Shown in pieces: positions 21,150 through 43,033 of a stretch of DNA of 64,000 nt; position 1 is the stretch's first letter, and every line of letters starts with the position of its first letter. The notes under the pieces are model-generated. The model was not told the origin of the DNA, ran no database searches, and saw only the letters and a program-made list of their open reading frames with translations. The DNA comes from Myxococcota bacterium (lineage in GTDB: Bacteria > Myxococcota_A > JAVEVO01): positions 4,389 to 68,388 of the forward strand of contig JAVEVO010000002.1 of the NCBI GenBank assembly GCA_034005005.1. The letters are read 5' to 3'. Both the position numbers and the translations under genes were made by a program.

Positions 21150-21677
21150 TCAGGTCCACTGCTTGCGCAGGGAGTAGGCCAGCAGGTACCCGCCGGCGAA
21201 CACCGCGAACATGAACGCGAAGCTACCGACCGAGAGCACCGCGCCGCCGCTGAGAGCCTGGCCCGAGGTGCAGCCCCGGGCGAGCCGGGCGCCGTAGCCC
21301 ATCAGGGCGCCGCCGACCAACGCGAGGAGGAGGCGGGTCCCGGCCTGGACCCGCGGGCCTCGCCGCAGCTCGAGCTTGAAGCGCCGGTTGAAGAGGCCGC
21401 TCAAGGCCCCGCCCAGCATGGTGCCGAAGAGCATGAAGACCGAGCTGTGATCGAAGGGGTTGCGGCTGCCGCCCGCGGTCTCCGCGAGGCCCGCGACCCG
21501 GTCGACGTGGTCCGGCGCGGCCAGGGCGACCAGACCCGACTGCACCCGGCTGATCGCGCCCGAGGCGCCCAGCCCGCCGCCCGTGACGAAGAAGGCTAGA
21601 AAGAGCACGACGCCCAGCAGACAGCCTCCCAGGTAGGGGTTCAGGTAGGGTCGCGGCCCCCTGGCGTCGTCAGACAT
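21150..21677 (-). CDS. YeeE/YedE-family membrane protein (second half-transporter)
   Basis: …YGARLARGCTSGQALSGGAVLS… is the Sulf_transp motif. ATG 21677 (MSDDARGP) with AGGAGG 6 nt upstream is preferred over the GTG at 21692. Confidence 0.75.
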   Translation of the reverse strand: MSDDARGPRPYLNPYLGGCLLGVVLFLAFFVTGGGLGASGAISRVQSGLVALAAPDHVDRVAGLAETAGGSRNPFDHSSVFMLFGTMLGGALSGLFNRRFKLELRRGPRVQAGTRLLLALVGGALMGYGARLARGCTSGQALSGGAVLSVGSFAFMFAVFAGGYLLAYSLRKQWT

Positions 21678-23907: not shown

Positions 23908-25322
23908 CGTCTGCCTCCGACCCCGGCCGGGTCCGCGTCGTAGCCGAGGGCCGCCCAGTCCAGCCGGCCGCCAGCACCATGGCAATCGGCGCAGGCGAGG
24001 GCCTGCCCGGCCTGGCGCACCAGGTGGTTGAGGGGCCAGTACATCGCGGTGGCGACGAAGCCGTACTGCCCGCTGTACGCGAGGCCGGCCTGCTGGGCCC
24101 CCTGGCGGAGCGCGCCGTCCCAGTCGAAGGTCGTCCAGTACCCGGTCGGCCCGGTGGTCTGCGGGGTGAGCAGGTGCTCGTGCTGGAGGTCGTAGGGCTG
24201 CTTGCCGCGGTGCACCTTGAAGGGATAGATCTTCGATTTCTTGTCGCCTTTGGCGCCGAGGGGCGGATTCAGCTCAGTCGTCCTCGCGGGATCGACGGGG
24301 TCACCAGCGAGGTATCGCCCCGTGCGACCATCCCACCAGCGGTACTCGGGGACCAGGCTCTGGCCGTAAACGAACGCGCCCTTCTTCTTCTGGTACTGGT
24401 GTTCGTCCTGGGGACGCGTGCCGTCGCCGGCCTGGCTCCAGTCCCAGGCGAGCTTGGTCGGGGCGAGGTGCGCGTGGGTGGGGATGTGGCAGGTCGGGCA
24501 GGCCACCGCGGCGAGGTGGGTGTCGAGCCGGGCGTCCTGGTGCCGGTGACGCTGGTGGCAATCCTCGCACGCGAGGCTGTGGGCACGGTCGACGCTCACC
24601 GCGATGGAGCGGCCCCGGAGCGCGTGCTCCCGGCCGCCGTGGCAGTCGATGCAGAGCATCCCCTGCAGCCCCATGTGCACATCGTCCTTGGCCTGGGGAG
24701 TGGTCAGCCCCGTGTTCAGGTCACCGTGCTTCACGCCCATGCCCCCGCCGCCGAAGAAGTGGCAGACACCGCAGTTGTCGAGGCGGGGGTAGCCGACCGA
24801 GCGGGCCACAGCCCGCAGATCGGTCCCGGGGACGGGCAGCCCGGCGTCACCCTTGAGGTAGCTGCCGGACCAGTCGTGGCAGACCAGGCAGTCGACGTTC
24901 TCCTCCCTGGTGAAATCATAGCGACCGTCCCGCCAGCCGTAGCCCGCGTGGCACTTGGTGCACATCGTCTCGTTGCTGGTGATGCCGATGCAGAAGTTGT
25001 TGATCAGGTTGCGCTTGCCCACGGCGTGGATGCCGGTGCGGCCCGGGATCTCTGCTGGCGGGGCCAGCCAGGTGAAGTGGGTGCTCCCCAGCAGTTGCCG
25101 GCCGGCGTTCGGGTGGCAGCGCAGGCAGGCCCGGGTCACCTCGGGCCCCTCCTGAAACGGCTGGTCGAAGAAGGAGGAATGGTCGAGGTGGGCGCGATGC
25201 CCGGGGGTCGGGGGACGGGAGGAGGCCGTTGGCCGCCAGAGCCCCCATCCGGCCAGCAAGAGGCCCCCGGCCGCGACGAGCGCGAGCAGGGAGAGCAAGA
25301 GTCGCTTTTTCGTCAACGCCAC
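23904..25322 (-). CDS. Octaheme c-type cytochrome, tetrathionate-reductase (OTR) family-like
   Basis: Signal peptide and eight CxxCH motifs (CLRCH, CTKCH, CLVCH, CGVCH, CIDCH, CEDCH, CPTCH, CADCH). GTG start at 25322. ATGA overlap with the downstream CbcL-like gene. Confidence 0.7.
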   Translation of the reverse strand: MALTKKRLLLSLLALVAAGGLLLAGWGLWRPTASSRPPTPGHRAHLDHSSFFDQPFQEGPEVTRACLRCHPNAGRQLLGSTHFTWLAPPAEIPGRTGIHAVGKRNLINNFCIGITSNETMCTKCHAGYGWRDGRYDFTREENVDCLVCHDWSGSYLKGDAGLPVPGTDLRAVARSVGYPRLDNCGVCHFFGGGGMGVKHGDLNTGLTTPQAKDDVHMGLQGMLCIDCHGGREHALRGRSIAVSVDRAHSLACEDCHQRHRHQDARLDTHLAAVACPTCHIPTHAHLAPTKLAWDWSQAGDGTRPQDEHQYQKKKGAFVYGQSLVPEYRWWDGRTGRYLAGDPVDPARTTELNPPLGAKGDKKSKIYPFKVHRGKQPYDLQHEHLLTPQTTGPTGYWTTFDWDGALRQGAQQAGLAYSGQYGFVATAMYWPLNHLVRQAGQALACADCHGAGGRLDWAALGYDADPAGVGGRR

Positions 25323-29633: not shown

Positions 29634-29841
29634 GCCGATCACCTCCGCGCCCCCCGGGGGGGCTCTGCTTTAATTTGAGACAAATAGAATCTCAATTGTA
29701 GATAAACACCGTTCCAGTCATCCACCTGACCAGGGACCGGTTTGAGGATTGACTCTCGCTGCAGTTGTCGATTAGGCTCGTTCCGTTCCAGAAGTCTATT
29801 CTGCAGAGAGCGAAGGCAGCAACCAGCAGCGAGGTAATCTC
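29634..29841 (+). promoter_or_regulatory. AT-rich (about 45% GC) promoter/regulatory island upstream of the giant lipoprotein gene, containing GTTCCAG direct repeats
   Basis: tttaatttgagacaaatagaatctcaattgtagataaac in a roughly 72% GC background. gttccag occurs at 29711 and 29785. GAGGT RBS before ATG 29842. Confidence 0.45.
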
Positions 29842-32800
29842 ATGAGAATCCGCACGCTTTTCCATCCGCTGGTCCGGATCCTGTTGGTCCTGGCCCTGAG
29901 CTTGTCCGCCCTGCCCGGGTGCGGCGGTGAGGCCGACCCAGGCGAGGGCGAGGGCGAGGGCGAGGGCGAGGGCGAGGGCGAGGGCGAGGGTGAGGGCGAA
30001 GGGGAGGGCGAGGGAGAAGGCGAGGGAGAGGGTGAAGGAGAGGGTGCTCCGCCCTGCGTGCCCTGCCCGCCGGGAGCCTCGTATCCTTGCCCCGAGCCCT
30101 GTCCCGGCGGCGCGGGCGGGGTGATGCGCTGCGAGCAGCAGCCGAGCGGCCAATACTGCTGGGCCGCGGCCTGTGACTGCGCCGGGTGCACCGTCGGTCA
30201 GACCATGGCCTGCACCTGCGGCGCCGACCCCGGCGTGCAGAACTGCACCAAGTCGGGCACCTGGGGCTCCTGCATGAAGGACTGCGCCTTGCCCAACCCC
30301 GATGGCGGGCTCGACCTGCCGGGCAAGGCCTTCTGCACCCCGCTCGGCACCTGGAGCGAGTGCACCAGCGGCTGCCCCGAGACCGAGTGCTCCGCGGGAC
30401 AGGTCGCCGACCCGGACTTCGGTTGCGGGTGCTTCGACGCGTATCGCGAGAACATCGACTGCACCAACACGGGCCTGGCGCCCGGTGCAGCCCAGGCCTT
30501 CGGCATCCGCGTCTACCAGAACGGCGCCTGGCGCTGGCAGAACTGCCAGCCACGTTCGTGCCTCAGCGGCTACACCCTCCAGGGGGCGGAGTGCGTCCAG
30601 TGCCAGACCGCGGACCAGTGCGGCCCCGGTGAGGATCTCATCGGTTGCCTCTGCCAGGCCGTGGATTGCCCCCCCGACGAGCTGATCTGCCAGTGCGAGG
30701 CCGACGTCTGCATCAGCGCCAGTTGCGGCCCCGAGTTCTGCCTGCCGGCCAACGGCTGCGAGGCGAAGAACCCCGCCGAGTTCGAGGCGAGCTGCTCGGG
30801 GGGGCCGGTCGAGGAAGAGAAGTGCACGATCTGCCACACCGGCCTCGAGAAGGCCCACGTGCCCTTCCTGAGCTGCGTGGAGTGCCACGGCGGTGACGCG
30901 AGCACGGTCAACGTGCTCCAGGCCCACGTCGCCAAGCCGGCCGCCATGGCCAGCACCTGGAACTCCACCGACCCGGTCACCGGGACATACTTCAACTACC
31001 TGACCCACGTCGGCCTCGAGGACGAGCGGTTCGACGACCCGGCGACGCCCTCGATCCACGAGGGTCTGGCCTGGTTGAAGTTCTCCAACCCGGCCGACCT
31101 GCGGGTGGGCGGCCAGACCTGCGGCAAGGAAGGCTGCCACACGACGATCCTCGGCGCGGTGACCAAGAGCGTCATGGGGACCTCGGCCGGCGTGATCGGC
31201 GGCGCCCACTACGCGCTGGGCCTCGGCCGCCGGGTGAACGGGCTGCCCATCGACACCGAGGCCGCCCGGCTCGCCAGCGTCGCCGCCCGGACCACCCCCC
31301 TGCTCGACGAGGGGATGGTCTCCGAGCCCAACTTCCCCACGGGCACCGCCCGCGAGCTGGCCCCCTACCCCACCGCCGAGCTGCGTGACATCGGCGACAG
31401 CTCCGACGAGGGCCTGGCCGCGATGCTCGAGGACACCATCGACAAGGCCTGCGCCTCCTGCCACGTCGGCAGCAAGGGCGCCAACCGCCGGGCCGGCGAC
31501 TTCCGCTCCGCAGGCTGCTCGGCCTGCCACGTCCTGTACGAGGACGACGGCGTCAGCCGCTCCGCGGACGCCAGCATCCTCAAGACCGAGCCGTACTACG
31601 ACCCCTCCAACCCCGGGGTCGCGGACGCCTACACCGACATCATGCTCAAGCCCGGGCAGCGGCCCCACCCCTACCAGCACCGGCTGACCCGCAAGCTGCC
31701 GTCGCGCCACTGCGCGCACTGCCACAACGAGTCCAACTGGACGGTGATGCAGTTCAAGGGGCAGCGGCCCGATCCCAACGGCGACCTGCAGGCCACCTTC
31801 GGCTGCCAGGAAGGCGGCAACGAGGACAAGTGCCGCTACGACAACTCCCTCGTCGGGGAGAAGCGCCGCCACGGCCTGAAGTACCACCAGATCATCGACT
31901 ACGAGGACCTCAACGGGGACGGGGTCGACGACACCCCCGCGGACGTCCACTTCCTCGCGGGGCTCGACTGCATCGACTGCCACACCCCCACCGAGATGCA
32001 CGGCGACGGCCGCATCCACAGCCGGATGGACCAGGCCACCGAGATCCGCTGCGCCTCCTGCCACGGCACCATCGACAGCTACATCGACCCGGCCCAGTCG
32101 CCGATCCCCAACCTCGTGCGCCAGGGCACCGAGGCCCGCCCCTCCTTCTACCTCAAGTCGAAGATCACCGGGCGGCTGCACTACATCTACCAGGTCAAGG
32201 ACTCGGCCATGGACGTCTCCCCCGGCGCCCGTGACCCCCGCACCGGCGAGCGCGTCTACGCCCGCAACGCCAGCCTCGCACACGGCCGCTGGAACGGTGC
32301 GGAGAACGTCGACGACGGCATCGGGATCAAGTCCCTCGACGCCAGCGCGCCCGACGGGGAGACCACCCGCGACGGCTTCAGCCACGCGGACACCCTGGAG
32401 TGCAACACCTGCCACGCGACCTGGGGCAACATGTGCTACGGCTGCCACCTGACCCTGTCGGACTACGATCCCACGGGCAACGAGCCCCTGTCCGACTTCT
32501 CCAACGTCAGCGGGCTGCTCTCCCCCGGCAAGGTGGTCCAGAAGGACGTGACCTTCGTCTCGATGCTCGACATCCAGCTCGGCGTGAACAGCCGCGGCAA
32601 GGTGTCCCAGTTCACCCCGGGCGGCAAGGTCTTCTTCCGCCACATCACCCACCCCCAGGGTGCCGACGATTTCCAGGGCTCCACGGGCGCGTCCTACCGC
32701 ACCTTCAACGACCGACTGGGCTTCGGCAACCGTGTCGGCGCGGGCCTCGCCTCTCGCGACCCCGACCTCGGCGGGCTGTACAACAGCGACGTGCGGGCGG

Positions 32801-35800
32801 ACCAGAACGGCGCCCTGTCGTTCAACCCGGTGGTCTCCCACACGGTGCAGCGCAAGCCCCGCAACTGCACCCAGTGCCACATCCCGGTCGGCCACACCGC
32901 GACCCCGGCGACGGACCCCTACGCCCGCCAGGCCATGGTGACCTGGGGCGTGGTCCCCGGCGGCGCCTCGCCCGAGACCTCGGCCTTCCTCGCCGAGGTG
33001 CCCCTGACCACCCAGCGGGACTCGGGCAGCACCTTCTCCACCAGCGCCGGCTTCCTGATCCCGGACATGGTGGGTAGCGACGTCGAGGGCAACCCGGCCA
33101 ACACCTTCACCTCCTCGCCGAGCGCGCTCCCCGGCACCACCGCCGGCGACACGGCTGCGCACCGCCTGGACTGGGTCGTGCTCGAGGACGGCTTCCCCCT
33201 GTCCAGCACCTCCCGGCCGCGCCACGAGCCCCCCGGCCCCCTGGCCCGCTTCGGCGCGCCGGGCGGCGGGGCCGGGCCCCTGGCCGCGGAGACCCTGGCC
33301 AAGCTGAAGGACAAGGTGCGGGTCTACGACTTCGCGGAGTTCACCCGGACCGGCAACCTGCTGGCGCCGATCTTCTATCAGGCCGACGTCGACGACAAGG
33401 ACGGCGACGGTTACTGCCCCGCGGGGATCGACGGCAACGGCGACGGCGACTGCTCCGACACGGGAGAGGCAGGCGGCACCGGCCCCTTCGACTGCGACGA
33501 CACCTCGGCCGACGTCAACCCCGACGCGGACGAGGACTGCGCCGACACCATCGACAACAACTGCAACGGGCTCGTCGACGCGCAGGACGGCTCCTGCGAG
33601 GGCGGGCTCGACGGCGACGGGGACGGCTGGTGCCCCGCGGGCCAGGACACCAACGGCGACGGGGACTGCATCGATCCGGGCGAGTCCGACGCCTCCGGTC
33701 CCTTCGACTGCAACGACGAGGACCCGACCCTGAACCCGGCCAAGAGCGAGGACTGCTTCAACGGCAAGGACGACAACTGCAACGCCCGCATCGACGCGGC
33801 CGACCCCGAGTGCTCGAACTACGCGGACAAGGACAAGGACGGGTACTGCCCCGCGGGCAAGGACAACAACGGCGACGGTGACTGCACCGACGAAGGCGAG
33901 CGGCCCGAGGGCGGCCCGGTGGACTGCGACGATGCGACCAAGACCACCGCGCCGGGCGCGACCGAGATCTGCGACAACGGCATCGACGACAACTGCGACC
34001 TGCGCAAGGACTGCGGCTCGGGCTGCGCCGGCTGCCCGGACAGCTCCACCTGCGGGGTGGCCGCGGACTGCCAGAGCGGCGTGTGCAAGGAGGGCCGCTG
34101 CGAGGTGCCCGCCTGCAACGACACCGTGCGCAACGGCAAGGAGACCGACGTCGACTGCGGCGGCGGCATCTGCCCCGCGTGTGCGGACACCAAGGCCTGC
34201 ACCCTGGCCAGCGATTGCACCAGCCTCGTCTGCACCGGCAACATCTGCCGGGCGCCGGCCTGCAACGACACGGTGAAGAACGGCACCGAGAGCGACATCG
34301 ACTGCGGCCCGGGCTGCAGCAAGTGCGCGGACTTCCTCCGCTGCACCGCGGCGGCGGACTGCGTCTCCGGCGTCTGCACCGCGAACCAGTGCAAGGCCCC
34401 CTCCTGCACCGACCGGGTGCTCAACGGCGAGGAGACGGCCATCGACTGCGGCGGCACCTGCACCAAGTGCCGCGACAACCAGGCCTGCGCCTCCGACCTC
34501 GACTGCGTCTCCGGGGTCTGCATCGGCGCGGTGTGTCAGGCCGCGACCTGCACCGACGGCGTGCACAACGGCACCGAGACCGACGAGGACTGCGGCGGGA
34601 GCTGCCGCAACACCGCGAAGTGCGAGGACTACCTGAAGTGCACGGTCCACGCGGACTGCGTCAGCGGCGTCTGCACCCAGAACCTCTGCCAGGCGCCGAG
34701 CTGCACCGACCGGGTGAAGAACGGCGACGAGACCGCCTTGGACTGCGGCGGCTCGTGCGATCCCTGCGCAGACCGGGCGACCTGCTCCATCGGCTTCGAC
34801 TGCGAGAGCGGCGTCTGCTCCGGCGGGACCTGCCAGGTGCCGACCTGCGAGGACGGCGTGAAGAACGGGGACGAGGCCGACCGCGACTGCGGCGCGGTCT
34901 GCCCCAACCAGTGCGCCACGCAGAAGACTTGCGTCATCGGCGACGACTGCGTCAGCGGCGTCTGCGAGAACAAGCGCTGCCAGCCGGCCGCCTGCGACGA
35001 TGGGGAGCAGAACGGCAACGAGACCGACACCGACTGCGGCGGCGACTGCCGCCCCTGCGACACCAACGGGAGCTGCAAGCTCGCCCGGGATTGCGCCAGC
35101 GGCGTCTGCAAGCAGCTCGTCTGCAAGGCCGCGGCCTGCAACGACGAGGTCCAGAACGGCCTGGAGACCGACGTCGACTGCGGCGGGCTCTGCGATCGCT
35201 GCGCCGACAACAAGACCTGCGCGGTCGGCACCGACTGCGCGAGCGGCGTGTGCGCGGGCAGCATCTGCCGCAAGGCGACCTGCGAGGACCGCGTGAAGAA
35301 CGGCGACGAGACCGACGTCGACTGCGGCGGCGGTTGCCCCCTGGATTGTGCGGTCGACAAGGGCTGCCTGAGCGGCGACGACTGCCTCAGCAAGGTCTGC
35401 ACCGGGCTGAAGTGCGTCGCGGCGACCTGCGCGGACGGCACCAAGAACGGCACCGAGACCGACAAGGACTGCGGCGGCGGCTGCCAGGCCAAGTGTGCGC
35501 CGGAGCAGGGCTGCACGGTCGGCGGGGACTGCACCACCGGCGTCTGCCTCGCGGGGGTGTGCCAGATCGCCAAGTGCGACGACCTCGTGAAGAACGGCCA
35601 GGAGACCGACATCGACTGCGGCGGCGGCTGCGCGGCGAAGTGCGCGGACGGCAAGGGCTGCGGCCTCGGCAGCGACTGCTACAACAAGGTCTGCACCGAC
35701 AAGATCTGCCGCGAGCCGGCCTGCAACGACTTCGTGCAGAACGGCAACGAGGCGGCCGTGGACTGCGGCGGCTCCTGCCCCACCCGCTGCGCGGACCTCT

Positions 35801-38800
35801 CCACCTGCCGGGCCGCGGGCGACTGCGCGAGCGGCGTCTGCACCGGCGGGACCTGCGCCGTGCCCACCTGCAGCGACAAGGTGAAGAACGGCAACGAGAC
35901 CGACGTCGACTGCGGCGGCCCCTGCGGACCCTGTGCGGACGGGCGGAGCTGCGCCTTCGCCGCCGACTGCCTCAACAAGATCTGCCAGGGCAGCATCTGC
36001 CGGGCCGCCCAGTGCGGTGACGGTCAGCTCAACGGCGACGAGACCGGCCTGGACTGCGGCGGCTCCTGCGTCGCCGACTGCGCGGACGGGCTGGGCTGCA
36101 AGGCCCCGGGCGACTGCCAGAGCGGCGTCTGCACGAACTCGCTGTGCGTCGCGGCCAACTGCGACGACAAGGTGAAGAACGGCCTCGAGACCGACGTCGA
36201 CTGCGGCGGCCCCTGCGCCCCCTGTGCGGACGGCAAGCGCTGCACCCTCGGGACCCACTGCACCAGCAAGGTCTGCACCGGCGGCTTCTGCCAGGTGCCG
36301 TCCTGCGAAGACAGCGTCAAGAACGGCAGCGAGACCGACATCAACTGCGGCGGCTCCTGCCCCAAGTGCCCGGACACCAAGACCTGCCTGCTGGGCACCG
36401 ACTGCGTCAGCAAGGTCTGCGATGGCACCTGCCAGGCGCCGACTTGCAGCGACAACCAGACCAACGGCACCGAGACCGATCTCAACTGCGGTGGGTCCTG
36501 CCCCGACTGCCCGGACGGTAAGGCCTGCAAGCTGGGCAGCGACTGCGTCAGCACCGTCTGCTCGGGCGGGGTCTGCGCGCAGGGGAGCTGCGCCGACGGC
36601 TCCAAGAACCCCGGCGAGACCGACATCGACTGCGGCGGCGGCACCTGCGGGCCCTGCGCGGACACCAAGAGCTGCCTGGTGGCCACGGACTGCCTCAGCG
36701 GGGTGTGCGACGGCGTCACCAAGAAGTGCCTGGCGCCGGCCTGCAACGACGGGGTCAAGAACGGCGCCGAGACTGACATCGACTGCGGCAGCAACTGCAA
36801 CGACTGCCTCGACGGCAAGCTCTGCTCCCTGGCCGGCGACTGCGCAAGCGGCGTCTGCGCCGGCGGCAAGTGCCAGGTCCCGACCTGCATCGACGGCGTC
36901 AAGAACGGCCTCGAGACGGACCGCGACTGCGGCGGCACCTGCGGCAAGTGCGACGACACCAAGGTCTGCAGCGTCCCGGCCGACTGCGCCAGCGGCGTCT
37001 GCACCAACAAGGTCTGCGTCGCGCCGAGCTGCACCGACGGCGTGAAGAACGGCCTCGAGACCGACCTCAACTGCGGCGGCGGGGTCTGCGGCAAGTGCGC
37101 CAACGACCTGAGCTGCCTCGCAGCCAGCGACTGCCTCAGCGGCGTCTGCGCCGGCGGCAAGTGCCAGGCGCCGGCCTGCACCGACGGCATCAAGAACGGC
37201 AGCGAGACCGACGTCGACTGCGGCGGCCCCTGCAGCAAGTGTGCGGACACGAAGACCTGCGAGATCCCTGCGGACTGCACGAGCGGCGTCTGCACCACCA
37301 AGGTCTGCCGCGCCCCGGTCTGCAACGACTCGGTGCTCAACGGCAACGAGTCCGACGTCGACTGCGGCGGCTCCTGCCCGAACAAGTGCGGCAACACCCT
37401 CACCTGCCGCGCCGCGGCCGACTGCGTCAGCGGCGTGTGCACGGGCGGCAAGTGCCAGGCGCCGCTCTGCACCGACAACGTCAAGAACGGGACCGAGACC
37501 GACGTCGACTGCGGCAGCAACTGCAGCGACTGCAGCGACGGCAAGGCCTGCTCCCTGGCCAGCGACTGCCTCAGCAACGTCTGCGTCAACAACATCTGCC
37601 AGTCCAGCGGCTGCAACGACAACGCCAAGAACGGCAACGAGACCGACGTCGACTGCGGCGGCTCCTGCTCCCCCTGCCTGCCGCCCAAGCACTGCCTGAT
37701 CCCCGCGGACTGCTCGAGCAAGGTCTGCCTCGACACGGTCTGCCAGGCTCCGGCCTGCAACGACGGGGTCAAGAACGGCACCGAGACCGACCGGGACTGC
37801 GGCGGTAACTGTGGGCCCTGTGGCGATCAGAAGACCTGCAACGTCCCGGCAGACTGCACCAGCAAGGTCTGCACCAACAACGTCTGCCAGGCGCCGGCCT
37901 GCGACGACACCGTGAAGAACGGCAGCGAGACCGACACCGACTGCGGCGGCTCGTGCAAGGCCTGTGCGGACACCAAGGCCTGCTCCGTGGCCGCGGACTG
38001 CCTCAGCAAGGTCTGCACGACCAACGTCTGCCGCGCGCCGGCCTGCAACGACACGGTGCTCAACGGCAGCGAGTCCGACGTCGACTGCGGCGGCACCTGC
38101 AACGACTGCGTGGTAGGCAACCGCTGCAACACCGGGGCCGACTGCGTCACCGGCGCGTGCGTCGATGGCCGCTGCCAGTCCGCAGGCTGCACCGACGGCG
38201 TGAAGAACGGCAGCGAGACCGACATCGACTGCGGCGGCGGCTGCGAGCCCTGCGTCAACGGCAAGGTCTGCACCCTCCCCACCGACTGCGCGAGCCTCGT
38301 CTGCACCGCGAACACCTGCCGGGCCGCGACCTGCAGCGACACGGTGCGCAACAGCGACGAGACCGACGTCGACTGCGGCGGGTCCTGCCTCGCGGACTGC
38401 GCGGACGGCAAGGCCTGCAAGACGGGCGGCGACTGCACCAGCGGCGTCTGCAACAACCTGCGCTGCGCGGCCCCGTCGTGCTCCGACGGGCTGAAGAACG
38501 GCAACGAGACCGACGTCGACTGCGGCGGCCCGTGCAACAAGTGTGCGGACACCCTGTCCTGCAGCTCGGCCACGGACTGCCAGAGCGGCGTCTGCGCCAG
38601 CGGCAAGTGCCAGGCCCCGACCTGCAGCGACAAGGTCAAGAACGGCCTGGAGACCGACGTCGACTGCGGCGGCGGCACCTGCAACAAGTGCATCACGGAC
38701 AAGGCCTGCACCAAGGCCCTGGACTGCGTCAGCGGCGTCTGCAACAGCAACATCTGCCGGGCCCCGACCTGCAGCGACGGTGTGCAGAACGCGGCCGAGA

Positions 38801-39831
38801 CCGACATCGACTGCGGCGGCGGCACCTGCAACAAGTGCGCGGACAACAAGAAGTGCAGCATCCCCACGGACTGCCAGAGCAGCGTCTGCACCAACGCGCT
38901 CTGCAAGCCTGCGCTCTGCACCGATTCCGTACTGAACGGCGCCGAGACCGACGTCGACTGCGGCGGTGGAACCTGCACGGCCTGCGCTGCCAACAAGAAA
39001 TGCAAGGTAGACAGCGACTGCCTGCAGGGTGTGTGCAACAACGGGATCTGCCTGCCGACACGAACCATCAAAGCCACAAACGGTATCCGGTGGTGGTCTG
39101 ACAACACCTATGCAACCACTTGCCTTGGCTATCGTCGGCCTCTGGACAGCAACTACACTTATGTTGGCGATACGGGCAACGGTGTCTACAGGTTGCGCAC
39201 ATCCAGCAACCCGATTGACGTCTACTGCGACATGACCACCGACGGCGGCGGCTGGACCTTCATCGGCTACTACAAGGACGGCGCTTCCGACTCACCGCCG
39301 GGATGGCACAACGACGAGTACATCTACTTCATGAACGCCCGGGACAACAAGTTCTACGGGCGTGACACCAACCTGGCCAACCCGAACTCGCCAGGAGCCT
39401 GGATGGATTGGCGGGTGCTCGAGATGATCACCTGGCCAATCGAGTATGCAATCATCCTCGACCAGAACAGCTACTCGGCTGGCTGGGAGAATCATCAGGC
39501 AAAGGTCATCTACCGAGTCAAGAACCGGAACATCATGCCGGATTACGGTCAGTCTCAGGACCTGAACAGCGGAGACAACCTGTGGTACAAGTTCCGCCCC
39601 TGGGACAACTGGACCGACGTCGGCAGCTCTTCAGCTTCGGGCTGGTATTATTGGTATCCTTACTCGGCCGGAAATGCCTACCTGATCCTCTTCCACTGCG
39701 ACAACTACCCACTGTGTGGGCATGGCGGTGGTAGCAACTACAATTATTGGAACTACTACGGAACTGGCGTGCCTGGCGGCAACAACTCGTGGTACCACAC
39801 GAGTCGCCAGCTCGTCCGCGAGATCCGCTAG
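29842..39831 (+). CDS. Giant (3329-aa) mosaic lipoprotein: (GE)17 linker, Cys-rich region, multiheme cytochrome c domain (10 CxxCH plus one CX4CH), 3 MopE-like Cys/Asp motifs, about 34 tandem 48-aa 8-Cys repeats, C-terminal fibrinogen-related domain
   Basis: Signal peptide and lipobox MRIRTLFHPLVRILLVLALSLSALPGCGG. Heme motifs CTICH, CVECH, CASCH, CSACH, CAHCH, CIDCH, CASCH, CNTCH, CYGCH, CTQCH, plus TCGKEGCH. MopE-like DGDGYCPAG…DCDD…PGA.E.CDNGIDDNC motifs. Repeats have the form C.D.V.NG.ETD.DCGG.C..C.....C....DC.SGVC....C. The C-terminus reads …IDVYCDMTTDGGGWTFIGYY…, the fibrinogen beta/gamma globular-domain signature. Confidence 0.85.
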   Translation: MRIRTLFHPLVRILLVLALSLSALPGCGGEADPGEGEGEGEGEGEGEGEGEGEGEGEGEGEGEGEGEGAPPCVPCPPGASYPCPEPCPGGAGGVMRCEQQPSGQYCWAAACDCAGCTVGQTMACTCGADPGVQNCTKSGTWGSCMKDCALPNPDGGLDLPGKAFCTPLGTWSECTSGCPETECSAGQVADPDFGCGCFDAYRENIDCTNTGLAPGAAQAFGIRVYQNGAWRWQNCQPRSCLSGYTLQGAECVQCQTADQCGPGEDLIGCLCQAVDCPPDELICQCEADVCISASCGPEFCLPANGCEAKNPAEFEASCSGGPVEEEKCTICHTGLEKAHVPFLSCVECHGGDASTVNVLQAHVAKPAAMASTWNSTDPVTGTYFNYLTHVGLEDERFDDPATPSIHEGLAWLKFSNPADLRVGGQTCGKEGCHTTILGAVTKSVMGTSAGVIGGAHYALGLGRRVNGLPIDTEAARLASVAARTTPLLDEGMVSEPNFPTGTARELAPYPTAELRDIGDSSDEGLAAMLEDTIDKACASCHVGSKGANRRAGDFRSAGCSACHVLYEDDGVSRSADASILKTEPYYDPSNPGVADAYTDIMLKPGQRPHPYQHRLTRKLPSRHCAHCHNESNWTVMQFKGQRPDPNGDLQATFGCQEGGNEDKCRYDNSLVGEKRRHGLKYHQIIDYEDLNGDGVDDTPADVHFLAGLDCIDCHTPTEMHGDGRIHSRMDQATEIRCASCHGTIDSYIDPAQSPIPNLVRQGTEARPSFYLKSKITGRLHYIYQVKDSAMDVSPGARDPRTGERVYARNASLAHGRWNGAENVDDGIGIKSLDASAPDGETTRDGFSHADTLECNTCHATWGNMCYGCHLTLSDYDPTGNEPLSDFSNVSGLLSPGKVVQKDVTFVSMLDIQLGVNSRGKVSQFTPGGKVFFRHITHPQGADDFQGSTGASYRTFNDRLGFGNRVGAGLASRDPDLGGLYNSDVRADQNGALSFNPVVSHTVQRKPRNCTQCHIPVGHTATPATDPYARQAMVTWGVVPGGASPETSAFLAEVPLTTQRDSGSTFSTSAGFLIPDMVGSDVEGNPANTFTSSPSALPGTTAGDTAAHRLDWVVLEDGFPLSSTSRPRHEPPGPLARFGAPGGGAGPLAAETLAKLKDKVRVYDFAEFTRTGNLLAPIFYQADVDDKDGDGYCPAGIDGNGDGDCSDTGEAGGTGPFDCDDTSADVNPDADEDCADTIDNNCNGLVDAQDGSCEGGLDGDGDGWCPAGQDTNGDGDCIDPGESDASGPFDCNDEDPTLNPAKSEDCFNGKDDNCNARIDAADPECSNYADKDKDGYCPAGKDNNGDGDCTDEGERPEGGPVDCDDATKTTAPGATEICDNGIDDNCDLRKDCGSGCAGCPDSSTCGVAADCQSGVCKEGRCEVPACNDTVRNGKETDVDCGGGICPACADTKACTLASDCTSLVCTGNICRAPACNDTVKNGTESDIDCGPGCSKCADFLRCTAAADCVSGVCTANQCKAPSCTDRVLNGEETAIDCGGTCTKCRDNQACASDLDCVSGVCIGAVCQAATCTDGVHNGTETDEDCGGSCRNTAKCEDYLKCTVHADCVSGVCTQNLCQAPSCTDRVKNGDETALDCGGSCDPCADRATCSIGFDCESGVCSGGTCQVPTCEDGVKNGDEADRDCGAVCPNQCATQKTCVIGDDCVSGVCENKRCQPAACDDGEQNGNETDTDCGGDCRPCDTNGSCKLARDCASGVCKQLVCKAAACNDEVQNGLETDVDCGGLCDRCADNKTCAVGTDCASGVCAGSICRKATCEDRVKNGDETDVDCGGGCPLDCAVDKGCLSGDDCLSKVCTGLKCVAATCADGTKNGTETDKDCGGGCQAKCAPEQGCTVGGDCTTGVCLAGVCQIAKCDDLVKNGQETDIDCGGGCAAKCADGKGCGLGSDCYNKVCTDKICREPACNDFVQNGNEAAVDCGGSCPTRCADLSTCRAAGDCASGVCTGGTCAVPTCSDKVKNGNETDVDCGGPCGPCADGRSCAFAADCLNKICQGSICRAAQCGDGQLNGDETGLDCGGSCVADCADGLGCKAPGDCQSGVCTNSLCVAANCDDKVKNGLETDVDCGGPCAPCADGKRCTLGTHCTSKVCTGGFCQVPSCEDSVKNGSETDINCGGSCPKCPDTKTCLLGTDCVSKVCDGTCQAPTCSDNQTNGTETDLNCGGSCPDCPDGKACKLGSDCVSTVCSGGVCAQGSCADGSKNPGETDIDCGGGTCGPCADTKSCLVATDCLSGVCDGVTKKCLAPACNDGVKNGAETDIDCGSNCNDCLDGKLCSLAGDCASGVCAGGKCQVPTCIDGVKNGLETDRDCGGTCGKCDDTKVCSVPADCASGVCTNKVCVAPSCTDGVKNGLETDLNCGGGVCGKCANDLSCLAASDCLSGVCAGGKCQAPACTDGIKNGSETDVDCGGPCSKCADTKTCEIPADCTSGVCTTKVCRAPVCNDSVLNGNESDVDCGGSCPNKCGNTLTCRAAADCVSGVCTGGKCQAPLCTDNVKNGTETDVDCGSNCSDCSDGKACSLASDCLSNVCVNNICQSSGCNDNAKNGNETDVDCGGSCSPCLPPKHCLIPADCSSKVCLDTVCQAPACNDGVKNGTETDRDCGGNCGPCGDQKTCNVPADCTSKVCTNNVCQAPACDDTVKNGSETDTDCGGSCKACADTKACSVAADCLSKVCTTNVCRAPACNDTVLNGSESDVDCGGTCNDCVVGNRCNTGADCVTGACVDGRCQSAGCTDGVKNGSETDIDCGGGCEPCVNGKVCTLPTDCASLVCTANTCRAATCSDTVRNSDETDVDCGGSCLADCADGKACKTGGDCTSGVCNNLRCAAPSCSDGLKNGNETDVDCGGPCNKCADTLSCSSATDCQSGVCASGKCQAPTCSDKVKNGLETDVDCGGGTCNKCITDKACTKALDCVSGVCNSNICRAPTCSDGVQNAAETDIDCGGGTCNKCADNKKCSIPTDCQSSVCTNALCKPALCTDSVLNGAETDVDCGGGTCTACAANKKCKVDSDCLQGVCNNGICLPTRTIKATNGIRWWSDNTYATTCLGYRRPLDSNYTYVGDTGNGVYRLRTSSNPIDVYCDMTTDGGGWTFIGYYKDGASDSPPGWHNDEYIYFMNARDNKFYGRDTNLANPNSPGAWMDWRVLEMITWPIEYAIILDQNSYSAGWENHQAKVIYRVKNRNIMPDYGQSQDLNSGDNLWYKFRPWDNWTDVGSSSASGWYYWYPYSAGNAYLILFHCDNYPLCGHGGGSNYNYWNYYGTGVPGGNNSWYHTSRQLVREIR
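29941..30042 (+). repeat. In-frame (GGCGAG)n-type hexanucleotide microsatellite encoding (Gly-Glu)17
   Basis: Eight perfect ggcgag units followed by degenerate ggtgag/ggcgaa/ggggag/ggagaa units. It encodes GEGEGE…. Confidence 0.9.
34015..39054 (+). repeat. About 34 tandem copies of a roughly 147-bp coding repeat (48-aa 8-Cys module)
   Basis: Periodic NG.ETD.DCGG and DC.SGVC codon blocks recur every 140-150 bp. This periodicity generates the long spurious out-of-frame and antisense ORFs in the track. Confidence 0.85.
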
Positions 39832-39838
39832 CCTTCCT

Positions 39839-39869
39839 CCCCCGGGGCGGCCCCCTGCCACCCCGGGGG
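39839..39869 (+). terminator. GC hairpin just downstream of the giant gene stop (candidate terminator, no T-tract)
   Basis: cccccgggg (39839-39847), a 13-nt loop, then ccccggggg (39861-39869). It sits between convergent genes (giant gene end 39831, dppF-like end 40036). Confidence 0.3.
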
Positions 39870-40035
39870 GGCCTTCCCCGCTCAGCCCTCATCCCCCCTG
39901 CTGACCAGCCCCCGACCACCCTCCAGCGCAGCCGTGCGCGCGGCGAGGCCGACCACGCCCACCAGGAGCTACGGCGCTGGGGCGGGACGGGACACCGTGT
40001 CGATCAGGAGGGGATCCGCGCCGGGTGGCGGGGGC

Positions 40036-41037
40036 TCAACCTCGCCGGTGGCACCAGACGCGCCGCCCGCTGGTCACGACCGGGGGGGGCGGCGTCTCCC
40101 GGCAGCGGGGCAGCCGCTCCGGGCAGCGCGCCGCGAAGGGACAGCCGGCCGCGTCGGCGACCGTGCGGGGCGCCGACGACGGGAGCGCGCCCGCGAGGAC
40201 GCCCGGGCCGTCGGTGGGCCCGGCCGGCTCCCGCCCCGGCCCCCGCAGCCCGGGCACCGCGGCCACCAGCAGGCGGGTGTAGGGGTGCTCCGGTGAGCAG
40301 ATCAGCTCGTCGAGCGGCCCCTCCTCCATGGGCCGGCCGCCGAGCAGCACCAGCCCGCGCCGGGCGAGCCGGCGCACCACCCGCAGATCGTGGGAGATCC
40401 AGAGCAGGGCCAGCCCCCGCTCCCTCTGCAGCTCCCGGAGCAGCTCCAGGATCCGCCGCTGGGTCGAGACGTCCAGGGCCGAGGTGGGCTCGTCCGCGAC
40501 GATCAGCTCGGGCTGCGTGGCGAGGGCGCGGGCGATGCCGACCCGCTGCCGCTGCCCTCCCGAGAGCTCGTGGGGGTAGCGCTGGCCGAGCTCCGGCGGC
40601 AGGCCGACCTCCCGGAGCAGCCGGTCCGTCTCCCCGGTCAGCTCGGCCCGGGCGACGAGGGCGTGCAGCCGCAAGACCGCGGCGAGGTGTTGCTGGACCG
40701 TCCAGCCCGGCGTCAGGGAGCCGAGGGGATCCTGGAAGACCGCCTGGAAGCGGGGCCGCACCCGCCGCAAGGCCCGTCCCCGGAGCCGCAGCAGGTCGAG
40801 CCCGGCGAAGCGCAGCTCCCCCGCGTCCGGCTCCTCGAGGCGCAGGATCAGGCGACCAAGGGTACTTTTGCCACTCCCCGATTCGCCCACTAGAGCGAAC
40901 GTCTCACCCGCAGCGATCTCCAGATCGACCCCCCGCAGGGCTCGCACCCGGGCCCCGTCCCCCCACAGGCTCCCCCCGCGCCCATAGCTCTTGTGCAGCC
41001 CCTGCGCGACGAGCAGCGGCGGTATGGACGGGCTCAC
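40036..41037 (-). CDS. ABC transporter ATP-binding protein, DppF/OppF-type
   Basis: Walker A GESGSGKST, LSGGQRQR signature, Walker B LIVADEPTSALD, and the oligopeptide-type C-terminal PEHPYTR motif. GTG start overlaps the upstream gene stop (GTGA). The upper part of ORF 40036..41952 is an out-of-frame read-through of the DppD-like gene (41034..41909). Confidence 0.85.
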   Translation of the reverse strand: MSPSIPPLLVAQGLHKSYGRGGSLWGDGARVRALRGVDLEIAAGETFALVGESGSGKSTLGRLILRLEEPDAGELRFAGLDLLRLRGRALRRVRPRFQAVFQDPLGSLTPGWTVQQHLAAVLRLHALVARAELTGETDRLLREVGLPPELGQRYPHELSGGQRQRVGIARALATQPELIVADEPTSALDVSTQRRILELLRELQRERGLALLWISHDLRVVRRLARRGLVLLGGRPMEEGPLDELICSPEHPYTRLLVAAVPGLRGPGREPAGPTDGPGVLAGALPSSAPRTVADAAGCPFAARCPERLPRCRETPPPPVVTSGRRVWCHRRG

Positions 41038-41909
41038 GATGAGCCTCCCGGGCCAGGCGCGACCGGCCCGGCCAGGTCCAGCGCGTCCGCGACCAGCGAG
41101 CGGGTATAGGGATGCTCGGGCTCTCCGAGCACGGCCGCGGTCGGCCCCTCCTCGACGAGGCGCCCCTGCTGCAGCACCAGCAACCGGTCGGCTCGCGTCG
41201 CGAGCAGCCCGAGGTCGTGGGAGATCAGCAGCAGGCCCAGCCCCTGCTCCCGACGCCAGGTGTCGAGGAGATCGAGCACCTCCTGCTGCCGGGTGGCGTC
41301 GAGCGCCGAGGTCGGCTCGTCCGCGACGAGCACCTGGGGTTCGCAAGCCAGGACCAGCGCCAGCAGGACCCGCTGCTGCAACCCCCCGGAGAGCTGGTGC
41401 GGGTACGCCCGCCCCTGGTCGGGCAGGTCCGCCAACCCGACCCGCTGCCAGAGGCGCTCGGCCGCGGCCGCGGCCGCCGCCCGCGTCACCCCCCCCCGCC
41501 CGATCAGCACCTCCTGGAGCTGCGCGCCCACCCGCTGCAGGGGGTCGAGGCTGGCGGCCGGGTCCTGGGGCAAGGTGGCGATGCCCCGGCCCCGCACCTC
41601 GCGCAGCGCCCGGGGATCGAGGCTCGAGAGGTCGCGCCCCGCGAAGCGGACCTCCCCCCGGACCCGGGTGGGCGGCGAGGGCAGCAGCCGCGTGAGGGCC
41701 AGGGCCAGGGTGCTCTTGCCGCTGCCCGACTCCCCCACCAGCCCGACGGTCTCGCCCCGGTACAAGGAGAAGGAGACCCCGGTGAGGATCGGCCGGGGCG
41801 GGCCCTGCTCGAGCAGGAAATCCACTTCCAGATCGACCACCTGCAGGATCGGCTCCTCGGAGGCGGGCGGCTGCGGCCCCCCGGGAGCACACCGGGACCC
41901 GACGGTCAT
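41034..41909 (-). CDS. ABC transporter ATP-binding protein, DppD/OppD-type
   Basis: GESGSGKST, LSGGLQQR, LVADEPTSALD, and PEHPYTRSL. Confidence 0.85.
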   Translation of the reverse strand: MTVGSRCAPGGPQPPASEEPILQVVDLEVDFLLEQGPPRPILTGVSFSLYRGETVGLVGESGSGKSTLALALTRLLPSPPTRVRGEVRFAGRDLSSLDPRALREVRGRGIATLPQDPAASLDPLQRVGAQLQEVLIGRGGVTRAAAAAAAERLWQRVGLADLPDQGRAYPHQLSGGLQQRVLLALVLACEPQVLVADEPTSALDATRQQEVLDLLDTWRREQGLGLLLISHDLGLLATRADRLLVLQQGRLVEEGPTAAVLGEPEHPYTRSLVADALDLAGPVAPGPGGSS

Positions 41910-43033
41910 CCGCGGACCCCCTGCAGATCGAGTGCGTCCCGCAACCCCTCACCGAGCAGGTTGCAGGCAGCCACCGCGAGGAACAGGAACCCGCCAGGCG
42001 CGAGGAGCCAGGGAAAATCTACGAGGAAACGCACCGACTGGGCGTCGCGCAGCAACAGACCCCAGCTCGCCTGGGGCTCCTGCACGCCCAGCCCCAAAAA
42101 GGAGAGCGCGGCCTCGTTGAGCACGAAGGCCGGCAGGGACAGGGAGAGGTTGGGGATCACGTAGGAGGAGGTCCCCGGGAGGATCTGGCGGACGAGCAGG
42201 GAGGCGGGCCCGAAGCCCTGGACCCGGGCTGCGCGGACGTGCTCCCGGTCCCGCAGGGCCAGCACCAGCCCCCGGATCACCCGGGCGTGGGGCGCCCACT
42301 CCACGAGGGCGAGCACCAGGGCCAGCACCCCCAGCAAGGCCCACGGAGACAGCTCCCGTCCGAAGGAGTCCCGCAGGGCGAGCAGCAGGTACAGCCCGGG
42401 CAAGGCCAGGACCAGCTCCGTCCCCCGCATCAGCAGGAAATCGAGCCAGCCACCGGCGTAGCCGGCCAGCCCACCGAGCAGCAGCCCGAGGGCCAGGGAG
42501 AGGAAGACCGCGAGCAGGGCCACCCCCAGGCTCACCCGGGTGGCGTGCAGCAGCCTGGACAGGAGGTCCCGACCGAACTGATCGCTCCCGAGCACGAAGA
42601 GCACCCCTCCCGGATCGACGCCGAAGAGATGGCGCTCGCAGGGCAGCAGGCCCCAGAGGCGGTAGGGCTCGCCGCGCACGAACAGGCGGATCGGCCAGCG
42701 CTCTGGTCCGGCGGCGTACTGCTTGCGCTGGGGATCGACCACCTGCACCCCCGCGACCGCGAGCCGCGGCAGGACCGCGCCCTCGGCGAACCCGAGCTGC
42801 CGGAGCATGGGCGGGTGGAACGCGAGGTCCCGGCGCTGGGTGTCCTGGCGGTAGGGGGCGATGAACTCGGCGCCGAGGGCGACGAGGAGCAGGACCACGA
42901 GCACGGTGCCGCCGCAGAGGGCGCCGCGGTCCCGCCGCAGCCGCTGCCAGACCAGGCGCCGAGGCGGGCCACCACCCGCGGCCGGCGCGCGCGCCGCCGC
43001 CGGCGAGCGACCGCCCGAGACCGACGGGCTCAT
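41906..43033 (-). CDS. ABC transporter permease, DppC/OppC-type
   Basis: BPD_transp_1 core (…SLGVALLAVFLSLALGLLLGGLAGYAGGWLD…). Stop/start overlap with neighbouring genes. Confidence 0.8.
   Translation of the reverse strand: MSPSVSGGRSPAAARAPAAGGGPPRRLVWQRLRRDRGALCGGTVLVVLLLVALGAEFIAPYRQDTQRRDLAFHPPMLRQLGFAEGAVLPRLAVAGVQVVDPQRKQYAAGPERWPIRLFVRGEPYRLWGLLPCERHLFGVDPGGVLFVLGSDQFGRDLLSRLLHATRVSLGVALLAVFLSLALGLLLGGLAGYAGGWLDFLLMRGTELVLALPGLYLLLALRDSFGRELSPWALLGVLALVLALVEWAPHARVIRGLVLALRDREHVRAARVQGFGPASLLVRQILPGTSSYVIPNLSLSLPAFVLNEAALSFLGLGVQEPQASWGLLLRDAQSVRFLVDFPWLLAPGGFLFLAVAACNLLGEGLRDALDLQGVRG

Follow-up and report, generated by a model that had tools for sequence, protein, structure and literature searches.

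The C-terminal domain of a giant protein encoded in the window (the whole 64 kb stretch of DNA that was analysed) is, as judged from sequence comparisons and a predicted model, a divergent bacterial branch of the fibrinogen-related domain (FReD)/intelectin superfamily, and not a canonical FReD. This domain, referred to here as the head, forms together with the last repeat of its stalk a cassette that has been exchanged between two near-identical strains, which is a new observation.

Layout of the giant protein

The reading frame at 29842–39831 has a GC3 of 0.95 and a codon-position GC pattern that indicates a real gene, while the long antisense ORFs opposite it are same-phase artefacts arising from the high G+C content. 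The stop codon is at 39829–39831. The features of the protein are as follows.

29842–39831, + strand: giant protein, one uninterrupted ORF of 3329 aa (ORF translation)
29842–29922, + strand: putative lipoprotein-type signal peptide, ending in a lipobox-like LPG-C27 (LSALPG-C27; read by eye from the sequence)
29941–30044, + strand: low-complexity linker, (Gly-Glu)x17 (TRF: period 6, 17.3 copies)
30823–32880, + strand: multihaem c-type cytochrome module, in which CxxCH occurs 10 times and CxxxxCH once (motif positions, Pfam)
33319–33957, + strand: three MopE-type Cys motifs (DGDGYCPAG...), putatively metal-binding (PF11617, 1e-14, 3 stretches matched)
33958–39051, + strand: stalk built from 35 tandem copies of a repeat that is about 48 aa long and contains 8 Cys
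39055–39828, + strand: FReD-like head of 258 aa, at the C-terminus

The original prediction placed the head at the distal end of the protein. This is reasonable, because the N-terminus bears a lipoprotein-type signal. An exact-sequence database look-up of the 3329-aa protein returned no record; the proteins encoded beside it point to a Myxococcota MAG as the source. The linker gave a Pfam match to TrAA12, which falls on the repeat and is spurious.

The cytochrome module matches Pfam Cytochrom_c3_2 (2.5e-11) and an ExtM-like NCBIfam model, the latter at 3e-39 and yet under the equivalog cut-off. Its nearest homologues occur on their own, as proteins some 1150 aa long with no fused head. Further multihaem and b-type cytochromes are encoded at 21670–25322. 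The gene neighbourhood (a D-Ala-D-Ala-ligase-like gene, a permease, an opp/dpp ABC transporter, gyrase and FeoB) gave no functional link.

The stalk repeat has the consensus CxDxVKNGxETDxDCGGxCxxCADxKxCxxxxDCxSGVCxxxxCxAPx, and no relative of the repeat profile was found in PDB, Pfam or NCBIfam. As a rough estimate, the stalk in the window would be some 100 nm long.

Comparison of the head with FReDs and intelectins

The translation of 39055–39831 (+ strand) is exactly the peptide quoted in the original prediction, with YRLRTSSNPIDVYCDMTTDGGGWTFIGYY and WYYWYPYSAGNAYLILFHCDNYPLCGHGGGSNYNYWNYYG. The head itself can be divided as follows.

39112–39270, + strand: demonstrably FReD-like part, consisting of the A subdomain (Cys23...Cys58) and the YCDMTTDGGGWT strand (PF00147, NF040941, hhalign)
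39271–39828, + strand: Trp/Tyr/Asn-rich, family-specific lobe, domain residues 73–258
39697–39750, + strand: most variable loop, indel-rich and of low pLDDT, with the lineage-specific Cys215 and Cys221 (family alignment, model)

The YCDMTTDGGGWT motif had been proposed to reproduce the FReD hallmark, and the two are homologous. The head matches PF00147 significantly (E 4.4e-7, 30.4 bits against a curated cut-off of 22), which was the check proposed for it, and it matches NF040941 with E 8.3e-12 (44.9 bits, cut-off 30) over residues 39–70. The NF040941 match is seen with the isolated head, and is lost on a scan of the whole 3329-aa protein. A six-frame translation of the 64-kb window contains only one motif of this type. 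A sequence search of PDB with the head gave 38 FReD, intelectin and related chains at E<=1, of which tenascin-R was the best (4e-7). Cys23 and Cys58 are conserved throughout the family (KNCKEI...CYCDM), as is GGGW almost without exception, and by analogy with FReDs the two cysteines are expected to form the A-subdomain disulfide.

The similarity does not extend over the whole domain. The PF00147 alignment covers positions 11–62 of the 221 in the profile, which is the first quarter, and stops at the GGGWT strand. With default settings, hhalign against ficolins has a probability of 95.6 over 46 columns, ending just past GGGWT. The family profile matches XEEL (8e-12), lamprey serum lectin (2e-10), hIntL-1 (3e-9) and TL5A (9e-9) in PDB, and these profile matches (XEEL, TL5A) are restricted to the A subdomain and GGGWT part. 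The phmmer alignments to PDB stop at query residues 85–140. Similarity to the FReD B subdomain is weak and fades by about residue 110–140, with nothing detectable further on. The search with ficolin-2 returned mammalian ficolins only, so that the FReD profile used was shallow.

The last 200 residues of the head were described as rich in Trp, Tyr and Asn, which agrees with their composition (6.5%, 10.5% and 10%, respectively). The head family has 19 invariant columns, in which Trp, Asp, Arg and Asn are frequent. Cys215 and Cys221 are confined to this lineage, and no conserved Cys was found family-wide after Cys58, so the equivalent of the P-subdomain disulfide is missing.

The AlphaFold model of the head is confident (pLDDT 84.6, pTM 0.87). 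When the full model was submitted to Foldseek, the top 50 PDB matches were all FReD/intelectin-like with probabilities of 0.99–1.0, but their TM-scores are only 0.27–0.48, with rmsd of 8–12 Å. When the A subdomain was removed, the remaining confident model (residues 60–258) matched no PDB structure at E<=0.001. Its best TM-scores were to intelectin-like lectins and MFAP4 (0.30–0.38, non-significant), all other matches being at or below 0.24.

The head would be a canonical FReD of the ficolin/TL5A type if it had A, B and P subdomains, the calcium site and the acetyl pocket, and bound N-acetylated sugars. The PF00147 score is beyond the gathering threshold, the sequence and fold matches include TL5A, ficolins and FIBCD1, and relaxed and global hhalign runs give a collinear alignment, which in the relaxed run against ficolin-2 is full-length, albeit at low confidence, pairing GDNL with GDSL, YYWYP with AWWYKNC and LVREI with MKVRP. 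However, PF00147 is aligned at no more than 52 of its 221 positions, the default hhalign alignment stops at 46 columns, the TM-scores do not exceed 0.48, the truncated model has no significant match, and no Cys pair that would correspond to the P disulfide is conserved in the family. The P subdomain and the DxD calcium site were both looked for in the head and not found. The DxD calcium ligands are Asp224 and Asp226 in ficolin-2 (L-ficolin numbering), and Asp318 and Asp320 in fibrinogen gamma. In the low-confidence relaxed alignment the near-invariant Trp186 stands opposite Asp224, and of the two ligands Asp226 alone is paired with an Asp (Asp188). We consider a canonical FReD very unlikely. 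The PF00147 match is to the A subdomain and GGGWT strand (profile positions 11–62 of 221), and does not span the A, B and P subdomains.

Animal FReDs (ficolins, TL5A, FIBCD1, tenascin, angiopoietins and fibrinogen beta/gamma) are like the head in some features and unlike it in others. The A-subdomain Cys pair and the GGGWT strand are common to both, and there are shared traces of the next B-subdomain elements (W..Y..F, and FYG aligned with FWLG) and of the closing C-terminal strand. Animal FReDs, like the head, are found C-terminally on a stalk, which is of collagen, EGF-like or FN3 type. In contrast, the head lacks the animal P signature NCA...GGWW...C..SNLNG.Y, the second disulfide and the DxD calcium site. 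It is also longer, at 258 aa compared to about 215 aa, and has as extras an N-terminal hairpin (VNGxRxWSDxT) and the Trp/Tyr/Asn-rich lobe.

A second alternative is that the head is an intelectin-like (X-type) lectin, with a calcium-dependent site for exocyclic diols of microbial glycans. Intelectins provide both the best profile-to-PDB sequence matches and the best residual fold scores: XEEL, lamprey serum lectin and intelectin-1 outrank the true FReDs, the CDMTTxGGGWTLV motif is nearest to the intelectin version, and the highest TM-scores after removal of the A subdomain are to 7e1e (0.38), 6usc (0.34) and 4wmq (0.33). Intelectins also have the same layout, and set a precedent for it: in them a short FReD-like segment precedes a sugar-binding region that is specific to the family (PMC9682848). 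However, those TM-scores have a probability of at most 0.13 and E>1, and the sequence alignment stops about 10 residues past GGGWT. The specific regions have no detectable sequence similarity; the intelectin domain is some 60 residues longer, and none of its calcium- and diol-binding residues can be aligned with or identified in the head. Intelectins are disulfide-linked trimers, whereas valency in the head would come from tandem copies or from a single stalked head. We rate an intelectin-like lectin as improbable.

Two further families share the N-terminal module. NF040941, GGGWT_bact (‘fibrinogen-like YCDxxxxGGGW domain-containing protein’), describes bacterial secreted or surface proteins with a YCDM..GGGW core like that of the head. 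The model has 46 positions and takes in bacterial proteins with unrelated downstream parts (for example P0026–P0030); it is silent on the conserved 190-aa lobe that defines the head subfamily, and has no function attached. The C-propeptide of fibrillar collagen (COLFI/NC1, PF01410) has the same module of about 50 residues, and PF01410 is precomputed for homologues of the head. The collagen structures 4ae2 and 5k31 match the head profile at about 5e-3, over the N-terminal module only.

It is because the FReD match is partial, the P features are missing, the TM-scores are at most 0.48 and the truncated model has no significant match that a divergent branch is preferred here to a canonical FReD.

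Exchange of the tip between sister strains

Comparison with the sister strain (L018) identified the following feature.

38898–39813, + strand: exchanged cassette, comprising the last Cys repeat and the head minus its last 6 codons

Within the cassette the DNA is 67–78% identical to the sister strain, compared to 95–100% in the flanks, and the boundaries are sharp. The value of dS is about 1 (1.0–1.3) in the cassette and 0.07 upstream of it, while dN/dS in the cassette is about 0.2 (0.17–0.23). The cassette has a GC3 of about 0.75–0.8 as against 0.96–0.99 elsewhere (binomial p 2e-30), and foreign codon usage is limited to the cassette. The 200 nt downstream are intergenic and 100% identical to L018, and beyond them lies a convergent gene for an ABC ATPase. 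At 38.2–40.1 kb there is also an apparent 2-nt deletion; the source samples are JGI 3300010351 and Ga0302240. When metagenome contigs were scanned for an exact 21-mer taken at the conserved 3′ junction, only contig L019, which is identical to the window, contained it.

A sharply bounded, divergent C-terminus on a giant surface protein is typical of polymorphic toxins, where it would be a toxin cassette in the style of CdiA-CT or Rhs-CT, and of regions diversified by a diversity-generating retroelement (DGR). Here, however, both alleles belong to one conserved family, with 75% amino acid identity and the low dN/dS given above. No toxin family was matched in Pfam or NCBIfam, and there is no immunity-like small ORF downstream, where the intergenic region leads directly to the ATPase gene. 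The divergent tract is about 915 bp long with substitutions that have no adenine bias, which argues against a DGR. A toxin or DGR origin is thus extremely unlikely.

The exchange of the tip as a cassette instead suggests that the head binds a target, as opposed to being a standard lectin of the ficolin type. Occurring as it does between near-identical strains, it provides direct population-level evidence that the unit replaced is the tip and not the stalk, a pattern that is typical of receptor-binding proteins.

Head family and proposed role

The 258-aa head has 25 full-length relatives at E<=1e-49. A profile search gave 104 representative clusters at E<=1e-30, which share the whole domain, and 12,434 at E<=1e-3, which mostly match through the GGGWT module of about 50 aa. 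The statement that FReDs are uncommon in bacteria therefore needs qualifying by these numbers, and by the fact that NCBI curates a bacterial model. Where it is seen, the head lies C-terminally on scaffolds of collagen, FN3, PKD, Ig, MopE/Cys-repeat or RCC1/TSP3/beta-helix type. It also occurs in tandem arrays of 2–6 (one Bradymonadia MAG has collagen with six heads, a ficolin-like form) and by itself, as a small protein bearing a signal peptide. The nearest heads identified so far have 59–61% identity, and belong to MAGs of Bradymonadia and Myxococcota whose G+C content is 54–56%.

Among viral proteins, the best fold matches are from cyanophages (TMq 0.42–0.47), and are annotated as having a fibrinogen or collagen-NC1 domain or, in one case, as tail-fiber-like. 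A tblastn search with the head against 50,697 phage genomes gave no match, and matches to PHROGs were to the motif alone. No relevant paper on FReD or GGGWT heads of bacteria turned up in the literature that was available for searching.

The head might instead bind a protein or a non-glycan surface, such as a receptor borne by other cells, the matrix of the organism itself or a mineral, and could then dock the cytochrome onto an electron acceptor or partner. Many animal FReDs bind proteins, among them those of angiopoietin, tenascin and fibrinogen, and the angiopoietin-Tie2 and tenascin-PTPRZ structures are among the fold matches; the head is moreover fused to a multihaem cytochrome, with more cytochromes encoded in the window. 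On the other hand, many scaffolds bear the same head without a cytochrome, and the cytochrome homologues are normally headless, so that the ligand may have nothing to do with electron transfer. We therefore regard such a ligand as doubtful.

The explanation we favour, and consider rather likely, is that the protein ends in a binding head from a prokaryotic FReD/intelectin branch, for which NCBI has the name ‘fibrinogen-like YCDxxxxGGGW domain’, with a bacterial lobe in place of the P subdomain and an exchangeable tip cassette. In its first 70 or so residues the head retains the FReD A subdomain and the GGGWT core strand, and it may also have preserved the central sheet and the closing C-terminal strand, to judge from the order of its secondary-structure elements and a weak trace in the sequence. 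The Trp/Tyr/Asn-rich lobe of the bacterial family would stand in for the calcium-stabilised P subdomain of animal FReDs and would provide the ligand-binding surface, the ligand being most likely a glycan or other surface polymer. The protein would be lipid-anchored with the multihaem cytochrome close to the membrane, and the 35 disulfide-rich repeats would hold the head away from the cell. An anciently diverged allele in the sister strain, between near-identical flanks, is as expected if the tip determines specificity. The comparisons establish that the N-terminal part of the head is homologous to FReDs, that the head family exists with the architectures described, that canonical P-subdomain features are lacking and that the cassette was exchanged, while we infer the binding function of the head, its ligand class, the surface exposure of the protein and the fate of the electrons.

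Myxococcota and Bradymonadia are lineages known for predation. A bolder and unlikely suggestion is that the head represents a third, bacterial branch of the FReD/intelectin superfamily, with an A/B core and a new aromatic ligand lobe, and that Myxococcota and Bradymonadia use it as a recognition tip that can be swapped. The protein in the window, with its cytochrome and long stalk, would then be a tethered redox protein guided by a lectin, and recombination of the cassette would alter its target specificity.

FReDs and intelectins are usually treated as lectins of animal innate immunity. A conserved prokaryotic subfamily that keeps the FReD/intelectin core and has its ligand-binding subdomain replaced would bear on the origin of the fold, and would provide a new class of binding modules. 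The presence of a homologue in a cultured organism, Marinilabilia salmonicolor JCM 21150 (L009), makes the family open to experiment. The nearest homologues of the cytochrome do not have this fusion to a head which, if functional, would tie target recognition to extracellular electron transfer.

Anatomy of the giant protein

The peptide originally predicted for 39055-39831 (+) is an exact match to the translation, with a stop codon at its end. It forms the C-terminal 258 aa (the head) of a single ORF of 3329 aa (29842-39831), whose GC content by codon position is that expected of a genuine gene (GC3 0.95); the window is approximately 72% G+C. Long antisense ORFs over this gene, including one of 2666 aa (29692-37692, - strand), are artefacts; being in phase with its codons, they have a high GC3 as well. 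The protein is composed as follows.

N-terminus, up to LPG-Cys27 (+): lipoprotein-type signal
29941-30044 (+): (Gly-Glu)17 linker, encoded by a (GGCGAG)17 repeat, directly after the lipobox
Between linker and cytochrome module (+): Cys-rich segment
30823-32880 (+): multihaem cytochrome module, 10 CxxCH and 1 CxxxxCH, giving 11 haem motifs
After the cytochrome module (+): three MopE-type motifs (PF11617, 1e-14)
33958-39051 (+): stalk of 35 tandem repeats, each of approximately 48 aa with 8 invariant Cys
39055-39831 (+): head

A Pfam TrAA12 match is spurious, being caused by the (GGCGAG)17 repeat. The cytochrome module matches Pfam Cytochrom_c3_2 (2.5e-11) and NCBIfam ExtM-like (3e-39), the latter far under its equivalog cut-off. 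Its nearest homologues (proteins P0330 and P0331, 56% identity) are stand-alone, of approximately 1150 aa, and lack stalk and head; the fusion of cytochrome, stalk and head therefore looks lineage-specific. The stalk repeats have the consensus CxDxVKNGxETDxDCGGxCxxC...DCxSGVCxxxxC, for which no relatives were found in Pfam, NCBIfam or PDB. This type of repeat also precedes the head in the homologous proteins P0013, P0002 and P0045.

At 21670-25322 (-) lie two more multihaem cytochrome genes, in one of which a membrane domain of the cytochrome b561 type is fused on, pointing to a cluster for respiration or extracellular electron transfer approximately 5 kb upstream of the 3329-aa ORF. A 1225-aa ORF with an eCIS core domain (10409-14086, +; PF13699, 1.3e-10) appears unrelated to the head.

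Relationship of the head to fibrinogen-related domains

The head had been predicted to be a fibrinogen-related domain, or FReD, and the HMMER match to PF00147 is indeed significant (30.4 bits, cut-off 22, E 4.4e-7). The best match among PDB sequences is the FReD of tenascin-R (4e-7), and the head passes a bacterial model of the motif that already exists in NCBIfam (NF040941, 'fibrinogen-like YCDxxxxGGGW domain'; 44.9 bits, cut-off 30). Of the 221 positions in the PF00147 profile, only 11-62 are aligned; pairwise PDB alignments die out between query residues 85 and 140; and when a 26-member family profile is compared with PDB, its matches are confined to the first ~60-110 positions, intelectins (XEEL, 8e-12) ranking above TL5A, tenascin and fibrinogen beta. 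Homology of the motif stands, but the head, in our reading, is not a canonical FReD.

Alignment of the head family to ficolins with hhalign at default settings gave 46 columns (probability 95.6). Relaxed settings gave a full-length collinear alignment to ficolin-2 at low confidence, pairing GDNL with GDSL, YYWYP with AWWYKNC and LVREI with MKVRP. This low-confidence alignment places the near-invariant Trp186 opposite Asp224, and Asp188 opposite Asp226, these two Asp being the calcium ligands of L-ficolin (ficolin-2). A conserved Ca2+ site, proposed as a check with the original prediction, is not supported by this alignment, only one ligand position being matched by Asp. The same alignment shows no counterpart of the P-subdomain disulfide, and there is no conserved Cys after the A-subdomain pair across the head family.

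The structure of the head was predicted with AlphaFold2 on the family alignment (pLDDT 84.6, pTM 0.87, with one of five models confident). The top 50 Foldseek matches in PDB are exclusively FReDs and intelectin-like lectins, with a best E of 2e-5, probability 0.99-1.0 and TM 0.27-0.48, and rmsd of 8-12 Å over ~270 columns or 5.2 Å over 155 columns. Residues 60-258 were also modelled alone to gauge the contribution of the A subdomain. This model (pLDDT 83.7, pTM 0.85, five of five models >=68) matched nothing in PDB at E<=0.001; its highest TM values, non-significant, were to intelectin-like lectins and MFAP4 (0.30-0.38), all others being <=0.24.

We place the head within the FReD/intelectin superfamily as a divergent member from prokaryotes. 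In our view it retains the A subdomain and probably the central sheet, and carries a putative ligand-binding lobe (the Trp/Tyr/Asn-rich residues 73-258) unlike that of FReDs. The original observation is confirmed and its interpretation partly supported. Intelectins provide a precedent for this layout, because only their residues 37-82 are FReD-like, the region after these being specific to intelectins (PMC9682848).

Divergence of the terminal cassette

Up to ~38,840 the giant gene has a synonymous GC3 of 0.97-1.0, which falls to 0.62-0.90 from there to the stop. Of 238 codons in the head, 179 have G or C in third position, where approximately 229 would be expected (p 2e-30). A metagenome contig from a sister strain (L018, JGI, 4763 bp) is collinear with 38232-42990. 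Identity is 95-98% in the upstream Cys repeats and 96-100% from 39814 on (the last six codons, stop, intergenic region and ABC transporter genes). Between them 38898-39813, aligned to L018 668-1587, has 67-78% DNA identity with sharp edges, and this segment coincides with the fall in GC3 from ~0.98 to ~0.8. This cassette has dS 1.0-1.3 and dN/dS 0.17-0.23, compared to dS 0.07 in the upstream repeats. GC3 is ~0.8 in both alleles. The window allele recurs unchanged in another metagenome contig, L019.

The simplest explanation is that the last stalk repeat and head were homologously replaced by an allele of ancient divergence, derived from a gene pool of lower G+C. Among genomes, the nearest heads are those of Bradymonadia and Myxococcota MAGs with 54-56% G+C. 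A DGR or toxin cassette is unlikely, since the substitutions show no adenine bias and no immunity-like ORF follows the cassette. Residue differences are spread along the head, and are densest at 131-150 and 211-228. The second of these stretches is a loop rich in indels and low in pLDDT, bracketed by Cys215 and Cys221, which are specific to the lineage. In the L018 allele, 2 nt are deleted from a run of C (L018 ~975-985, equivalent to window 39208) just before IDVYCDM, because of which the gene caller split the gene, with protein P0001 starting at the Met of CDMTT. Either an error in the assembly or a true frameshift (a pseudogene) would account for the deletion.

Distribution and proposed function

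The head has 25 full-length relatives at E<=1e-49. In an exhaustive profile search, 104 representative clusters passed E<=1e-30; at E<=1e-3 the number was 12,434, most of these being matched via the ~50-aa GGGWT module (named for its core-strand motif) alone. Reuse of this module ahead of other downstream sequences is widespread. Several proteins of 2-8 thousand aa (P0034, P0036, P0037, P0063 and others) have up to 15 copies of the module only, and ten smaller two-module proteins scanned (334-588 aa) match PF00147 positions ~2-54 and COLFI positions ~21-89. Among viral proteins, the best matches by fold come from cyanophages and are 'fibrinogen/collagen NC1 domain' proteins, one annotated as tail-fiber-like; tblastn of the head against 50,697 phage genomes gave no match.

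The head subfamily occurs at 17 loci among 185,579 species genomes (Myxococcota and Bradymonadia MAGs, Bacteroidota, Cloacimonadota and Spirochaetia). It is C-terminal wherever seen, single or in tandem. Bacteroidota versions are small proteins with a signal peptide; elsewhere the head comes after scaffolds of FN3, PKD or Ig, of MopE with a single Cys repeat, or of RCC1/TSP3/beta-helix type. C-terminal placement on such varied scaffolds is the pattern expected of a distal binding module. A 2086-aa Bradymonadia MAG protein (L001, 4924-11184) has an N-terminal domain, a collagen triple helix (PF01391), DADxLDGxDS repeats and six tandem heads, resembling, in a bacterium, the collagen-then-heads layout of ficolins. 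ORFs of similar size occur at loci L002 and L003, and two heads at L012. A homologue that is small, secreted and single-headed (L009, 9725-10594; lobe identity 49%) is encoded by the cultured Bacteroidota isolate Marinilabilia salmonicolor JCM 21150, and provides a practical experimental handle.

In sum, the head is a bacterial GGGWT/FReD-like domain whose lobe is uncharacterised; the fusion it belongs to is unusual, and the cassette that carries it is exchangeable. We propose that the lipid-anchored protein would extend a long disulfide-rich stalk, whose terminal head would bind its target via the lobe, as suggested by composition, conservation, architecture and analogy; the likeliest target would be a glycan or another polymer of a surface. 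The exchange seen between strains would then alter specificity. For the attached multihaem cytochrome, a possible though hypothetical role is docking for extracellular electron transfer.
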